This document shows, one piece after another, positions 31,403-39,312 of a stretch of 64,000 bases of DNA (its first letter is position 1; every line of letters starts with the position of its first letter). Origin of the DNA: Lophium mytilinum (taxonomy: Eukaryota). The stretch is taken from contig MU004183.1 in the NCBI GenBank assembly GCA_010093605.1, positions 1,736,001 to 1,800,000 of the forward strand, read 5' to 3'. The notes beneath the pieces are model-generated. The model did no database searches and was not told the DNA's origin. It saw nothing but the letters and a program-made list of their open reading frames with translations. The position numbers and the translations under genes were made by a program.

Positions 31403-32939
31403 ACAAGCAAACGCTCAGCCCCACTTAAACTTTATTCTCTAGGTACCAACGTCACCACCGGCGCAGCGCAGTCAATCGCAGCCAGTCAGACGGCTCTCAC
31501 GTGCCCCTTCAACAACGCTACCTATAATTCTAGAATGGCAAAACAGATCGGCCGCGCAGACGCCGCTGCACCTTATGCTGTACCTTTACAAGATGACTAG
31601 ACGGCCTACACCTGTATGCTGCTTGGTTGCTATCAAATACGTTCGAAAATAATAGAAATCAATAGACCGATCTACAGTTGACCCCTAAGAGTTGCGCTCA
31701 CACCAAACGCGCCCTGGCACTTAGAATTTATCATGCCATTGCACATTGGCCCTCCCACACCACCATGTCGGCATTAGCGTCGAAGCTCTGCTCGATGTTT
31801 TCTAAGGTATGGCTCGCTATCCCTTTGCGCTGCCACGAAGTTTATGCATCCGGTTGATCGCGGTCTTGATCGTCTATAGTGTTGGTGCCGCTAGGGAGCG
31901 TGAAGGATGTTCCGGCTGCCTCTGCGTTTTTCTGTACATTACAACCGTGAGGAAGTCCAGAGTAGTCGAGGCCTCGATGAAGCAGTCAAGTGCGCTTTGC
32001 CCTCCGACAGGGTAAGTCGGTCATGCTTGCTCCTCCATTCGCCCAGGTGTTGCCTTAAGTCTCCCGTCTACTTTGGACCTCTCATGTGTGTACTTTGCGT
32101 GTAGGTGAGCCAATGCGCTTTCTCGTGAATTAGATTATTTCTCAATGCTCTTATTTGGTAGCCGCGTACGATTTCTAGTGATGTTGTATCTTAGCTGATG
32201 CCTGTCAGTACCCGGAGCAAAGAAACGGGTGTGCTCGCTCCCTTATTCTACATCGTATCATTTAAGACCGCACACAGATCCCGACTGTAACTGGAGCAGT
32301 ACTTGTAGTGGCTGTGTCCAACTACTCATTCTCAGGATCTTGGTCGTGTTCTAGGCCGGTCGAAAGATCTACATGATTGCTTTTCTCAGCCGTCGAATAG
32401 TAGCAGCTCCTCCTCCACCTTGCTCCAGTAGACGAAAATAGCGGAATAGACTCTTCCGCTCATATCAACAGCCATGGCGAGGCAACAGCGAGTTCGCCAA
32501 AAGTTCTTTTCCGGCTATAAGATCAGGTCACTCACACCAGCCGCAATGGTGCTGCTTCGTGAATGTCGTAAATGTCATACAAATAAAGGTTTTAGGTCTT
32601 TCTACCATTCTACTTACGGAGAACAAAAGTGTAGGCAGAATTCGGCTTGGGACTGCGCAAGCGTGGCTGCACGATTGTAATTTTAGTTGCCTACGCGCTT
32701 TTCCTGCCTCGCCCGCATGAGGCCGAGGCAGTGCTGTCATTTAATGCAACCTATAGAAACCTCCTCATCTGCTATTGGGCAAGATGTCTCTCGCCCGCAT
32801 AAGGCTGAGGCAGTGCTGCCATTCATCGACATCTGCGAAATCTCCTTTTTTCACAAGGAGATCTTCGATTGCAGCTCTATTTTCTCCATTCAAACGAAGA
32901 TCGGACTTTCAAGATCACTTTCGTCATAATAAACAAGAA

Positions 32940-35069
32940 ATGCGCTCTCATGCAAAAGCACCCGGGCCCTTTGTAAGATGGCGACTGAAGCATCAAGGCG
33001 ACTGGAGACAAAGCGTCAAATTCGCGTTCATTTTCACAGCCGCTATTCTTTCATTAAACCTCTTATTCATCATTGTCGTTGCTGCAAAGGCAACCCATGA
33101 GAGCACTACCTCCGTAGTCATTTACGACGGCATCTGCAAAAAAGCAGGACGATACAGCAGCACTTTTCATTTCGTCATCAATGCAGCCAGCAGTATTGTT
33201 CTTGCTAGTAGTAGTTATTGCCTAGTAAGAGACTCTTTCCTTGTTAGTGCATTCATACTCAGTCTAATTCATTCACAGCAATGTCTCTCAGCCCCGACGC
33301 GTGACGATGTTGACCGGGCTCACGCAGACAAAACTTGGATGGATATCGGAATACTCAGCTTTCGGAATGTTCGTCGGATTTCCACAACGCGACGCGGACT
33401 CTGGATACTGCTCGTCCTTTCGTCGCTTCCCTTGCATCTCTTGTTGGTATCTCCTGCTCACTTCTCTATATTAACTAACGACGAAATCGAGGTTCAATTC
33501 AGTAGTCTTTACAACTATCTCTTCGAGCGAGTACGACATATACTCGGCTCCAACGGGGCATGAGGAAGCACTCAATCGTATCTCAGCCTGGCCAAACTAT
33601 CAAAATGGCTCTCTGGTCCGTCTTGATAACGCAGCCTGCATCACTGCTTACTCAAGAGGATATCACGTGGGCTGGGGAGACGTAATCGTATTCTCGAACA
33701 TCCCCGAGCCGGTATACAACGTGTCGATAAGTCTCGCTGATTACGATTGGATGTGCGCGTCGGCTGTCGATCTTTCTGTGTCCTGCTTTTCTTACCTCTC
33801 TAATATCACCGCATCGAACTGGACATATCCAGCTGCCAACTACCGAGTTACAAGCTGCCTGGCAGAAGTCAAAGAGGAACACTGCAGGCTGAAAGCTAGC
33901 TTGACGCTCTTAATCGCAGTCGCGGTGGCCAACATCGCTAAGCTTGTGGTCATATATGCCTTACTGCTGGCGGAGGAACGACCGCTACTAACACTTGGCG
34001 ATTCGATAGCTTCTTTCATTAGCACACCTGATGCATACACATCTGGAAGATTCAGAAGCGTGGAGCTGCGTTCCGGTGGTGTCATAGGACGGGTCGCTGT
34101 GTATGATGGCAAGCTCCAAAAACGCGGCAGCGTGCCGCTTCTCAACTCCAAGCCGCTACAACTCCAAGGCAGCGAACTCCAACGTGCTCGATTTCGGGGT
34201 GGACGACTATTCGTGTGTGGAGCCATGTTAGAATATTCTCCCTTTTAGTGTTGGACGTTTAGAGCCATCTGCTAACCTTGGACAGTACTATCTTACTGTT
34301 AGCACTACTCCTGGCGGTGTATTTCCCGAGTATGCAGAAACAATACGGCGGTCTCCTAAGCTTCCAAGAAATGAAACAACTCGGCTTCGGGCCTTCGGAT
34401 CCCGCCTCACAGCTGCAATGGGGCGACCACGGGTTCGCCGGCAACGTGCTCATCGCCAACGCCGGCCAACTGCTGTTCTCCATGCTCTACTTCAGCTACA
34501 ACGGAATGCTAACCTCTGTCTCCGTTGCCCGCGAATGGAACAACTTCGGTCTCCGCCCCAAAGGCCTCCGCGTCTCCGAGAAGCCACGACAGGCGCAGCG
34601 AAGCACGTATTTCCTGTCGCTGCCCTACCGCTTTGCCGCGCCCCTTTTGCTCATCTCCGCCACAATGCACTGGCTGCTTTCCCAAAGCATCTTTTTCATC
34701 AATGTAGACGGCTATTCGCGCATGGGTGTCCACGATCCGGCGTTGGACATCACAACAGTGGGGTTGTCGCCAAACGCGCTTCTTGCCGTCATGGTTGGGC
34801 TGGTCGCGATGCTTGTCTTCATGGGCGTCGTGAATGCTTTGAGGCTGAGAGCGAAAGTGCCGTATGTTGGCAGTTGCAGTGTGCTGATTGCTGTGGCTTG
34901 TCATCCGTCAATGGACGAGAAAGACGAGATGGTCACGAGACCGCTTTGCTTAGAAGCACTGCAGGAACACGCGGAGGACGATGGGAACGGGAGTTATAGG
35001 TTTACGCCCGGGAGCGCAGACGGAGGACAGAAAGGCTTGTTGCGAGAAGGTGAGGAGCTGGGGGCGTGA
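32940..35069 (+). CDS. DUF6536-family multi-pass membrane protein; about 3 introns, start uncertain
   Basis: HFVINAASSIVLASSSYCLQCLSAPTRDDVDRAH..WMDIG..SFRN..W.LL.LSSLPLHLLFNS, LLTLGDSIASF, QRSTYFLSLPYRF..HWLLSQSIF and GSCSVLIAVACH. Confidence 0.85.
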
Positions 35070-35180
35070 CGTTGAACGCCCTCTGCACTCTCGGGAGGTC
35101 GAATGTAGCCTGGAGGAAGTACTATCGTGTACCCAGGGCTTTAAAGCTAGGGCATAGATATCCTACAAGGGAACGGAATC

Positions 35181-35958
35181 ATTGCAGTATGGCCCAGAGC
35201 GCGGGCTCAATGCATACAACGACTTTCTCGGGCGCTGGGCCGTATTAGGGATAACTATACGGCTCGACATAGATAAAAGACCCTTAGCGACGTATATAAT
35301 CTTCCTGTTATAGCCCAGAGCGCGAGCCCAGTTTCTACCTCGCGCTCAGAGCTATAACAGGAGTAGTCGGCAGACATCACCAGGGGACGATGGTAGGAGT
35401 TGCTTGCAGGAATTTTTCGTTAGAGGTCCTGGCGGGAGATCTACTTTCCCCGATATGGCCCAAACCGCGAGTTGAAACGTCGGGGAGGGTTTCCTCGCTG
35501 TTCGGTCCGTAGTAGGGATAGCCAAGCTCCTCGACGTGGGTCTTGTGCAAGGCTTTGAAGCTCAAAATCAGGTATTATAACGTCTGCCAAGAGGTCTATC
35601 TTTCTCATTTGAGCCCCATCCGCGAGCAGTATACCGAGCTCGCACTCTGGGCTACATCTGGAATACTAGACCTGCTCAATTTAGGAAATAAGAGAGGATT
35701 TGAAGGCAGGAAGCTAGCGTAACATACCTCACGGGCCATCTACTCTTCCTGTCAGGCCTGTCTGGGCCCAGAGCGCGAGCTCATGTAGACCTCGCCGTCT
35801 GGGTCATATTAGGACAAAAAGTACACGCAGTATGGGGTATAGAACAATAATCTATAGGAGGATGTCCAAGACGTAAGTTTCGAATTGAGGTTTACTGTTC
35901 CGCATCCGGCCCAAAGCGCGAACTCATGCATCCCTCGCGGTCTGGGCCATAATAGGAA
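35181..35958. repeat. Array of six palindromic (25-bp arm) hairpin units with regular spacers
   Basis: Consensus TTCCYRNTATGGCCCAGAGCGCGAG-loop-CTCGCGNTCTGGGCCATANTAGGAA at 35181-35251, 35302-35363, 35447-35518, 35602-35663, 35746/55-35815 and 35898-35958. Confidence 0.9.
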
Positions 35959-37368
35959 TAGCTTATATTCTCGGTATGGGGAATGTGCGGAGCTAGGATG
36001 CGATACGTATTTCTGATAGGATGTTGACGTGCTTGTAGCCGATCGAATATTGCATTCGCAAGGGATCTAGGAGGATGACTAGTGTTAAAAACACTACCGA
36101 GCGGAGGCTTGCCTTGGAAATCACGATTTAAAATGAGGGCTCGAATGGAATCATGTGATTACCCCGGCCTCCGGTCGTGATGAGGCAGCCTCGTTGGTTT
36201 ACCTTTTTTTCTCATACGCTGTGTTGGGAGTGAGACCACGTTTCTCTCTTGACGCAGCTGCTCTTTACACCCCTCTTCAGCCGATAGTTAACTTCGTAGT
36301 TGACCTCTATTGAACACAAGTCTCCTTATGCCGGCTCGCCATTAGGTTATGAGTTAATTGAGCTCCCCCTTCACGTACTGAGGCTACTACATACCGGATC
36401 CCTCCACTGCCCGTGGGCCATCTACAACGAAGGGCGCCCCACGGCTACACGCCATCTCGAACCGCAATCACTCTGACCACTTAACTGTTACAACCCGTTC
36501 TACTTCCAGGCGTAGACGCGACCTGAAGACTACGACGTAGCATAAGGGAACTAGTATCGCCATTCCTCTATGTCGCATCCGCTACGATCCAACGTCACTA
36601 GGAATCGATTTCGCTCCCTTCTCTACGCACGAGGATATCTGCCGCCAATATTGACCAGGCAGGCTAAGATGTTCAGCGTCATGGAAAGGCGAATCGGTTC
36701 ACCTACACGAAAAGCACAAGGGGGGGGACAGACGGATACTCTAAAATGTAGGAAGAGCATAAGGTGGGTCCTGAAGAAGAGCGCAGAGAAACACCTACGT
36801 GGATACAGATGGCTAAATAACCGTCTTAGAGCACAAAGCCCATAGTACTACTTCCTGAAGGCTCTCGGTACGCTCTGGTTCTTTGTGGTTTGAAGACGGG
36901 TTTTATAGTGAGAGAGTTGCAGCACCGTTGACACCCCAGACGGCTAGGACCTCGAGCAACCGGACGCGTGCTCCCCGTGGCGGCACGAAGGCGAGGAAGA
37001 GTAGTTGCAGCAGGTACTCATACAACTCGGGAATGAGCAGGTATCGAATGCGTATATCCTAGTGATCATGAGGTAAGAGCACTTCACAGATAGACGAGAA
37101 GGGACTTTTTGATCATGATTACGACCTAAGCGACGGCCAGCCTCGTAACCCAGACGAAGACCGTGCCGTTTGTTACCGATTGCTCCACGCTTCCTTCTAT
37201 GTGAGAGACCTGAAAATGAGCCTGAAAATGCTGGATGAAATGTTAAAAGGAAAAGGAAAAAAAAAGAACTGAGAAGACCAAGTAAAGCCGTGGCCATTCC
37301 AGTCAGTGCACACTGAGCTTTTTGAAAACGCCTGTTATCAGAGAGGGAAAGAAGACACGGGATCCAGA

Positions 37369-38944
37369 TCATGGGAGAGACAGTGGCGTGATGTTTGCAG
37401 AGGGCGTCCGGCCTTCGATGAGTTCAGCAACGCAGAGACCGGTACCGGGGGCTTGGGAGATGCCTGAAGGGGATGTGTCAGCATGAAACGAGACATGTGG
37501 AGGAATTCGATACACTTACCCCATGCGCCGTGTCCGGCGGCGACGAAGACACCGCCTTCGGCTGCTGGACGAGTGGTCAGACCGCCGCCGAGCTTCTCGT
37601 CTGGAACGCGTGCGATGATGGGTCGACCGCTGGAGGTGACTGGGCGAAAACACTGTGAGGAATGCAATTAGCCAATGCTCTCAATATTTTGACCTGTAGA
37701 CCACGGCCGCGGAAGGACGTACCAGCGAGGCCCTCATCACCTCGATCGCCTCCCCACCCCCCTCCAACCCCAGCATGACCGCTGCGCAGTCTCGCAACTG
37801 CTTGATAGCCGCCTCGTTAAGCACTACATCGGTTGCAATTTCTGGTAGTTTGATTTGAGTACTGTTGAGCCCCGCGATATAGATCTCCCCGCCGACGCGG
37901 CTGAACAGCTCCGGCGAAAATCCAAGAGTGTCGGTGGCAAAAACAGCGTGGCAGTCCTTGTCGGCATCTGTGGCGGCATTGTAGGTGGGATTTCGGAGGA
38001 GTAAACCGTGGCCGGCGAGCGGAGCGATGGGGATGCGAGTTTTGGAGGAGGGGAACAACGTGGAGAAGACTTTCGGGGCCCAGGAGCCGGCCGTTATGAC
38101 GAGCCGGGTGCAGGGGACTTTGACATGTTAGTGGGATTGCGCAAGAGCAGACTGAGCGGCTGAGGGGACACACGGTCAGTTTCAGTGCCGTCGGCGGTGC
38201 AGATGCGCACGCTGGCGAGCTCGCCCTTCACGTCTTTGGAGACCGAGAGGGCGCGAGCGGGCTGGTGCAAATGAACGCCGCGAGAGCGACATTCCTCAAG
38301 GAGGAACTTGGAGAAGCGGAGCGGATCACTGCGAGATGTTAGTTGTCTTCCAACTGGGTAGGTCGCGTGCTCCCGAAAAAAGATAATACAAATTCTAGGA
38401 TTTCGAGGTAGGCTCAAAGGCAGCTTCAACTTACATTTGCGCCGTACTGTTCTCCCGACTGATTACCTCCAAGCTTGTGCCTTCGCTCACAGCTAGCCAT
38501 TCAGGCCCATTTGCATTGCCAGGCGCACGAGCTCCAGAGGCCTGCGCACGACTCGTGCCATTTCGCAGGAAGTCTTCTCCACTCCCGCCGACAACGTCGC
38601 TGTCTGAGCTGAGGGAAGTTCCCGTGCTGAGGCTGTAGCCCCATCTCTTTCTTCCGTTGTACTTTTCGGCGAGCTCCTTGTGCAGCCTGAAAGACAATGC
38701 TCCGAGGGGAGCCACTGACGGCGCAAACCCTACCGCAAATGGTGAGCGGACTGCTCTACAGAAGGGCGAAGTGCTTACAGTCAGCAGCCAAGAAGCCCCC
38801 GGCAAGGCCTGAAGCGCACTGGAAGAGCTCTGGCGAGGACTCGACGAGATGGATGCTTTGCGCCGGGGTACGCGGCGATTGGGAGAGGTAGTAGGCGGTT
38901 GAGCATCCTACGATGCCGGCGCCGATGATCACGGTATTGGACAT
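37369..38944 (-). CDS. FAD-dependent oxidoreductase, DAO family (Tda3-like); multi-exon
   Basis: [20 protein letters not shown]ossmann motif, [23 protein letters not shown] and [16 protein letters not shown]. Confidence 0.92.
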
Positions 38945-39312
38945 GGTGAGTATGAGAGGATGCAGTGGGCACGGCGGGCGAAACGCGGGAGTAGGACGGC
39001 CATGGTGGTTTAAGAGTCGCGGCAACAATGGGCTGAAATAATGGTATGTGTGATGGAGAAGTCGTACGATGGTCAAGGAAATCGGCCCATATTCTACCCC
39101 ACCTCACACCCTGTCAGGCGCGCCAGATGATCGCCGCGGAGGGGTTCCGGCTGACTTTGTGTGCCCTTTGCAGCCTCTCTCAATCTATTTCGGAGCTTTA
39201 TAATTGGGCTGCATTGAGGCCGACGTCTAGATTCACACTACTTGATTGTGTGCTGGTTGGAAACATCTGACTTGCGGTCTCACAACACCACGAAAACCGA
39301 CCCGAAAACGCC

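Follow-up and report, generated by a model that had tools for sequence, protein, structure and literature searches.

Six highly diverged tandem copies of a unit with a quasi-palindromic core, located between convergent genes in Lophium mytilinum

Six inverted-repeat units follow one another at positions 35181-35958 of the Lophium mytilinum DNA studied here, a stretch of 64 kb that we call the window and to which all coordinates refer. The question raised by this locus is whether its hairpins have been kept paired by selection while the DNA between them drifted, or whether hairpins and intervening DNA alike are the remains of one larger unit. An earlier note on this DNA, made from the letters alone, described the locus as a repeat-spacer architecture of covarying palindromes. 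Our best reading is a different one, namely an old, non-coding tandem repeat at a single locus and not a system of separate repeats and spacers.

The whole array extends over 35160..36020; in it, six units of a single diverged tandem repeat follow one another head to tail. The arms of unit 1 lie at 35181-35205 and 35227-35251 around a loop of 21 nt, those of unit 2 at 35302-35326 and 35339-35363 (loop 12 nt), those of unit 3 at 35447-35471 and 35494-35518 (22 nt), those of unit 4 at 35602-35626 and 35639-35663 (12 nt), those of unit 5 at 35755-35779 and 35791-35815 (11 nt) and those of unit 6 at 35898-35922 and 35934-35958 (11 nt). Sequence and arm comparison placed all six pairs where the earlier note had drawn them. 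When each left arm was compared with the reverse complement of its right arm, 15, 22, 18, 14, 16 and 17 of the 25 positions matched in units 1 to 6, respectively. Unit 2 is the sole near-perfect stem, as had been claimed (24-nt arms, 92% complementary, 12-nt loop; inverted repeat I3), and the stem of unit 4 is the most degraded. The stems are decaying, with 14-18 complementary positions of 25 in five of the six units.

The spacing of the units is regular. The loops form two classes of 11-12 and 21-22 nt, which differ by about one helical turn. Start-to-start periods of the left arms are 121, 145, 155, 153 and 143, and the observation that these are mostly not multiples of 3 is true for four of the five. 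The spacers measure 50, 83, 83, 91 and 82 nt in array order; the 91 nt consist of 82 nt and a 9-nt duplication at 35748-35765, just before unit 5 (I18 in the repeat listing). These lengths are the same as those reported before, and the short trace AGG(C/A)TTTGAAG that had been seen in the spacers was also recovered there (repeat families D7 and D8).

The six-unit pattern is far beyond chance. A 15-nt core motif with up to 3 mismatches has 13 matches in the window, against 2.84 expected, and none of 100 shuffles reached 13. Ten of these matches are inside the array, where the motif recovers 10 of the 12 arms, and each of the remaining three, located elsewhere, carries 3 mismatches. A covariance model (CM) of the unit, run over the 64 kb with filters off and on both strands, scored units 1 to 6 at 72-85 bits (74.5, 84.7, 76.9, 76.2, 72 and 84.2 bits), while its best match elsewhere reached 8.7 bits (E 7.8).

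The neighbourhood is made up of ordinary housekeeping genes of a Dothideomycete; a DAHP synthase fragment encoded in the window is 100% identical to the protein named from L. mytilinum, the next named relative reaching 91%. The array occupies a gap of 1.9-2.3 kb that is faced by the 3' ends of two convergent genes. Upstream lies a DUF6536-family gene with several exons on the + strand (32775..35069; Pfam PF20163, E 3.3e-41). In an alignment with a homologue, its C-terminal exon reaches to within 4 residues of the homologue's end, which indicates that the stop at 35067-35069 is genuine, and the stop is located 112 nt upstream, as the earlier note stated. A fragment search with the DUF6536 protein returned only homologues of at most 47% identity; full-length proteins were outside its length range, so that it is uninformative on orthologues. 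Mytilinidion resinicola and Lepidopterella palustris were among the species that supplied homologues in the protein searches. Downstream lies a gene for a DAO-family FAD-dependent oxidoreductase on the - strand, with several exons and approximate ends (37341..39103). It was recognized by a PF01266 match in the N-terminal exon (E 1.1e-09; 38.7 bits, the cut-off being 27.9) and by exon-like open frames on the same strand. Its position between two 3' ends that converge means that the array is not a promoter. We considered a promoter or UAS (upstream activating sequence) array of the downstream gene and rejected it, since the DAO gene, located on the - strand, runs towards the array. A coding repeat was rejected as well: each of the six frames contains 9-17 stops, in agreement with the non-coding status that had been proposed.

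Transcription was read from contigs of three public runs, none of which is recorded as RNA, and contigs of this kind reveal nothing about strand, ends or small RNAs. Every contig matches the window at 100% identity, which leaves no variation among strains to compare. In one run, X3, whose status as RNA is our guess, the depths on four pieces were 14.3, 4.9, 9.8 and 946; this unevenness fits RNA, and the depths are unable to rank expression. One X3 contig (depth 14.3) spans 34300-35873 unbroken, which takes it from the coding end of DUF6536 across units 1-5, and the X3 contigs leave 36305-36319 and 36869-36946 uncovered. Of the three functions suggested earlier, only a place in the 3' region of the DUF6536 gene receives a hint, in that this contig joins the coding end to the units. 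From this weak hint the array is probably transcribed only passively, as read-through or as a long 3' tail of the DUF6536 transcript.

Whole units of 121-155 bp could be aligned with MAFFT at a mean column identity of 56%. An nhmmer profile of the unit had exactly six + strand matches, from 35161-35279 to 35879-36014 (E 1.7e-21 to 2.2e-31), and these abut one another from 35161 to 36014. With --max and E up to 100 over the 64 kb, the profile otherwise returned only the mirror-image - strand matches of the six units and noise (E at least 0.76). TRF at a minimum score of 30 produced 0 rows for the array because the copies are too diverged. The copies in the array stand head to tail and show homology along the entire unit, and the array escapes a standard finder.

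The spacers take part in this homology. Compared in register and ungapped, their identity is 0.359, against 0.225-0.31 (about 0.25) at 24 other offsets. Only ungapped in-register values were used for this purpose, since gapped identity is uninformative at this length (shuffled 80-mers already reach 0.57). Spacer S2 (35364..35446, 83 nt), which belongs to the D7 repeat family with its 300-nt spacing, is homologous to S4 (35664-35754): their semi-global alignment has a z of 4.8, and none of 200 shuffles was equally good. In the gapped shuffle tests the pairs S0/S2, S1/S6 and S3/S6 were marginal (z 2.1-2.7), and a control segment outside the array (S7) was null against all seven array spacers, S0-S6. 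Repeat families D3, D6 and D7 are spaced at 299-300 nt, which indicates a duplication step of two units. Since units can be aligned over their full length and the homology of the spacers is in register, the spacers are highly diverged parts of one repeat unit. The array is a tandem repeat of six strongly diverged copies, with a period of 121-155 bp and a 25-bp quasi-palindromic core, and the description as a repeat-spacer architecture has to be given up, the spacers being 36% identical in register against about 25% elsewhere and the units alignable from end to end.

Paralogous palindromes in a tandem array look covarying by eye, because both arms derive from one palindromic ancestor. The proper control for such arrays is to compare arm complementarity within units with that between units: because all arms trace to one ancestral palindrome, maintained pairing would make the two arms of the same unit match best. 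Complementarity was 17.0 of 25 within units and 16.3 of 25 across units, and 133 of 720 permutations were as high. Derived states common to both arms of a unit numbered 7 against 5.0 expected (132 of 720 permutations; 23 of 265 derangements), and the covariation term of RNAalifold was +0.25 kcal/mol. Over the full 25-bp stem, 75.2% of the cells were paired, compared with 74.6% after partner shuffling (223 of 500); there were 5 double-change pairs against 4.2 in the shuffles (208 of 500), and the covariation score was 0.181 against 0.168 (160 of 500). All measures of pairing maintained by selection, as would be expected of a milRNA, were inside the shuffle range. None of the four tests (permutation, derived states, RNAalifold and partner shuffling) exceeded its control, and with only six units all of them have low power, a caveat that lends no support to covariation. 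Sliding the partner by 1-3 columns lowered the pairing to 29-45%, which indicates that the palindrome itself is real. The G.T wobbles are 11 on the + strand and 11 on the - strand, so that neither strand is favoured as RNA.

The two central claims of the earlier note, repeat-spacer architecture and covarying arms, do not hold against these results. The arms do not covary, and retention of pairing through compensatory change while the spacers drifted is unsupported, given that complementarity within units equals that across units and that the wobbles are balanced. The covarying examples cited for that view are present, for instance A/A at column 11, found in units 2 and 4, but they represent one event at most because units 2 and 4 also share spacer ancestry, and cross-unit pairings match likewise. 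A lack of significant covariation had been named in advance as evidence against the proposal, and this is what the fold and alignment check returned. Pairing in the array was inherited from a palindromic ancestor, and selection for pairing is unsupported.

What, then, has produced six diverged copies at one place? To the explanation that we prefer we assign about an even chance: the array would be the relic of a local tandem amplification of one hairpin-bearing unit and would now be decaying, presumably with no function of its own. The founder would have been a single unit of about 145 bp with a 25-bp quasi-palindrome, possibly a small insertion of foldback or MITE-like type. Six copies may have arisen from it in place through slippage during replication or through unequal exchange, probably in more than one round and with a two-unit (about 300 bp) step among them, and the copies would then have diverged, mostly by point substitution and with few indels. 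The hairpins would still fold since both arms resemble the ancestral palindrome, and not through upkeep of pairing. The slow decay of the arms, the stem of unit 2 and the likeness of units 5 and 6 might reflect occasional templated repair between arms or units, or weak constraint. Quasi-palindrome correction, a template-switch repair, is an established mutational mechanism.

Decay has been uneven along the unit. As the earlier note had it, the arms are better preserved than the DNA between them: pairwise identity is 66% for left arms and 69% for right arms, with a range of 52-84% between units, compared with 44% for loops and 40-45% for flanks. The rough Jukes-Cantor distance is about 0.44 for arms and about 1.4 for spacers. 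The length of the spacers is constant at 82-83 nt despite near-saturating substitution, apart from S1 (50 nt) and with the duplication discounted. Over the unit pairs, the similarity of arms does not correlate with that of spacers (r -0.21 and -0.37). In units 5 and 6 the 50-nt hairpin module is 84% identical (42 of 50; D5) and the spacers are at random level in register, a contrast that is suggestive only, as in-register identity is sensitive to indels. Repeat-induced point mutation (RIP) was considered as the cause of the fast, indel-free divergence of the spacers and was rejected: the arm changes comprise 34 transitions and 32 transversions and GC is 0.507 (the RIP dinucleotide indices, 1.05 and 1.06, are equivocal). 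Neutral decay predicts even divergence over the unit, and the uneven decay together with the constant phasing is a residual puzzle for the preferred reading. Constraint on arm sequence and phasing fits the arm conservation, the constant spacer length and the lack of correlation between arms and spacers at least as well as templated repair does.

It is also conceivable, if improbable, that the array is a functional element retained since ancient times, in which twelve sites of about 25 nt with a phasing of 82-83 nt are selected for their sequence and not for pairing. Such an element might bind proteins, as a platform for insulation or termination, or consist of tandem-duplicated hairpin precursors of small RNAs with selected arm sequence, and we consider the two options improbable even when taken together. 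Arms that decay about three times more slowly, drifting loops and indel-poor spacers are the traces that such selection would leave, if the sites were indeed selected. In that case the locus would be a rare phased cis-element, or a rare hairpin-RNA cluster, in filamentous fungi.

The first of these options can be stated more precisely as an array of twelve putative protein-binding sites in alternating orientation, one per arm, selected for sequence and phasing and acting as a roadblock, terminator or insulator platform between the convergent genes, or left over as relic transposase-binding sites. Such sites would explain why the arms keep their sequence without covarying and why loops and spacers drift. 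The near-constant spacer length and the helical-turn difference between the two loop classes are consistent with them, and so is the per-column conservation of left and right arms, which is moderately correlated (r 0.4). The invariant columns (8 per arm), however, coincide between left and right at chance level only (3 against 2.56 expected, P 0.51). Moreover, the arm cores differ by 0-3 or more mismatches, with 10 of the 12 arms within 3 of the core; the array lies between two 3' ends and upstream of no gene; and the motif array is restricted to this locus, being found nowhere else in the 64 kb. We know of no protein that binds the arm motif. On balance, protein-binding sites are an unlikely explanation.

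Equally doubtful in our judgement is membership in a dispersed MITE or foldback family, with the arms as TIRs, although this proposal overlaps with local amplification as a possible origin of the founder. The element would be either a foldback of 60-70 bp or a 133-bp element made of a right arm, the spacer and the next left arm, in which case the apparent loop would be the junction. The unit is indeed small and non-coding and contains imperfect inverted repeats of 25 nt, complementary at 14-22 of 25 positions, and its TIR-like ends are better conserved than its interior. Tandem arrays of whole MITEs and satellites derived from MITEs or foldback elements have been described in corals, Xenopus, bivalves and Drosophila (PMC2872659, PMC9659126). 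Neither the CM with filters off nor nhmmer with --max and E up to 100, however, detected a copy of the unit other than the six on either strand of the 64 kb. A scan for the two-arm core pattern found 4 loci on metagenome contigs and 3 in prokaryote genomes, all of which scored at most 9.5 bits by CM (E at least 0.78) and are chance matches at such scores; these scans need an exact pattern match and the collections are poor in fungal DNA, so they carry little weight. No target-site duplication was obvious by eye beside the arms, where the element boundaries are ambiguous. With no further copy in the 64 kb and pattern scans at chance level, a MITE as founder is unsupported. A seventh unit that had been seen by eye at about 34990-35100, overlapping the DUF6536 coding end, was dropped, as neither nhmmer with --max (E up to 100) nor the CM gave anything there; the z of 2.67 for S0 against S2 is left as a marginal, unexplained hint.

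A transcribed hairpin array is a still more doubtful candidate. It would be a putative polycistronic milRNA precursor, or a structured 3' UTR of the DUF6536 gene that serves as substrate of an RNase III enzyme. On the + strand, every one of the six units has a better fold than its shuffles, with z values of -3.46, -8.52, -1.66, -3.13, -3.37 and -4.71 for units 1 to 6, and their MFE of -22.7 to -36.5 kcal/mol has the hairpin stability of a milRNA precursor of about 60-80 nt. The conservation profile is saddle-shaped, with arms above loop and flanks, as is also typical of paralogous miRNA hairpins, and the X3 contig that reaches from the DUF6536 coding end across units 1-5, in a run whose depths of 4.9 to 946 would fit RNA, is compatible with transcription. 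The - strand, however, folds about equally well (z -0.82, -9.65, -2.89, -3.17, -2.71 and -3.61), so that there is no strand preference, in line with the balanced wobbles. Pairing shows neither an excess of complementarity within units nor a favourable covariation term, and five of the six stems have 7-11 mismatched positions of 25, which would make them poor Dicer substrates. The contigs carry no information on strand, ends or small RNAs. Searching Rfam with cmscan over 33000-38000 at E up to 1 found nothing inside the array, in keeping with the previous statement that no described RNA family is recognizable; the sole match in this interval, sR44, is outside the array and has 19.9 bits against a gathering score of 45.

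A CRISPR-like adaptive repeat-spacer array in a eukaryote, suggested superficially by regularly spaced palindromic repeats with dissimilar DNA between them, is effectively excluded by the homology among the spacers, and the repeats are just 52-84% identical, the host is a fungus and a Pfam scan of 38 ORF translations from the window (9 + 23 + 6) gave no cas-like domain, so the earlier decision not to call the array CRISPR was sound.

As it stands, the locus matters little in itself: it adds another decaying tandem repeat between genes, in a wood-inhabiting fungus that has been little studied. As a fungal case of the hairpin-bearing tandem arrays known from animals, it may be of some interest to researchers of transposons and satellites. 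The 14-nt core string does not occur in the literature text that was searched. In the accessible portions of the literature on fungal MITE tandem arrays, milRNA hairpin clusters, Dothideomycete MITEs and L. mytilinum, no such array is described.

The array shares regularly spaced and partly palindromic repeats with CRISPR arrays, but its repeats are not near-identical, its spacers are homologous to one another and not unrelated, no cas genes are adjacent and the host is a eukaryote. Polycistronic miRNA clusters arise by tandem duplication of a hairpin in animals and plants. Such clusters and fungal milRNA loci, so far as the sources at hand describe them, resemble the array in their regularly spaced hairpins on one strand and in arms that are conserved above loops and flanks; here, in contrast, there is no sign of kept pairing, five of six stems are degraded and strand bias is absent. 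The closest described systems are the CMITE arrays of Acropora corals, in which whole MITEs stand in tandem and for which the authors propose replication slippage over repeated transposition (PMC2872659), and the MITE- or foldback-derived satellites that have been reviewed (PMC9659126). Such arrays also consist of a small unit that is bounded by or contains inverted repeats, arranged in tandem with short DNA between the elements. In both kinds of array the parent family is dispersed and the elements, like the gaps, closely resemble one another, whereas the present units are old and diverged, reside in a fungus and have no known dispersed copy. The MITE-derived tandem arrays described in the portions of the literature searched are all from animals or plants, and no fungal example was found in those portions. 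As a general class, the array can also be set beside the degenerate minisatellite with a quasi-palindromic core, with which it has in common a head-to-tail non-coding unit, confinement to one intergenic locus, divergence by substitution and a palindrome whose matching can be restored in part by templated repair from one arm to the other, as the stem of unit 2 suggests. It differs from such a minisatellite in that its units are far more diverged, to the point that TRF is blank, and in that the divergence is uneven, with arms at 66-69% identity and spacers at 36-45%.

The spacer before unit 5 of the hairpin array measures 91 nt because of a near-duplication of 9 nt, CCTGTCAGG / CCTGTCTGG, at 35748-35765. 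Together the two copies form a short palindrome that overlaps the outer end of the left arm of unit 5 (35755-35779). No extra hairpin unit was detected upstream of unit 1. The segment 35099-35180, which lies between the stop codon of the DUF6536 gene and unit 1, bears a marginal likeness to spacer S2 (35364-35446) between units 2 and 3 (z 2.67; 2/200 shuffles). Within the DUF6536 gene itself, a Pfam scan of the 34278-35069 exon, which encodes the C-terminal half of the protein, returned no family at E values up to 0.01; a separate family, PF28510, is placed by precomputed Pfam annotation on homologues of this half.

The remainder of the intergenic region (36021-37000) is mildly RIP-like (repeat-induced point mutation) in its dinucleotide indices, with a TpA/ApT ratio of 1.16 compared with 0.76 in the whole window, and a (CpA+TpG)/(ApC+GpT) ratio of 0.89 compared with 1.19. 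Its GC content is normal (0.51) despite these indices.

Downstream of the array, a piece from the public sequencing run X3, which is only guessed to be RNA, covers 36947-37300 and continues past it at a depth of 946, whereas adjacent X3 pieces have depths of 5-14. The open frames in this region are not protein-like in appearance. The piece from 36947 may come from the convergent DAO-family oxidoreductase gene, as its 3' end with the UTR, or represent a distinct abundant short transcript.

On the + strand, 37539-37593 weakly matches sR44, a C/D snoRNA family of archaeal type (19.9 bits, E 0.12; gathering score, 45 bits), almost certainly by chance. In a 57-nt contig of another public run, X2, positions 35841-35870 are fused to 27 foreign letters at a depth of 753, whereas genome contigs cover these positions at about 160. 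This join at 35841 is probably a library artefact rather than a genomic junction; the foreign letters resemble part of a loxP-type linker of the kind employed for Cre-lox mate-pair libraries.
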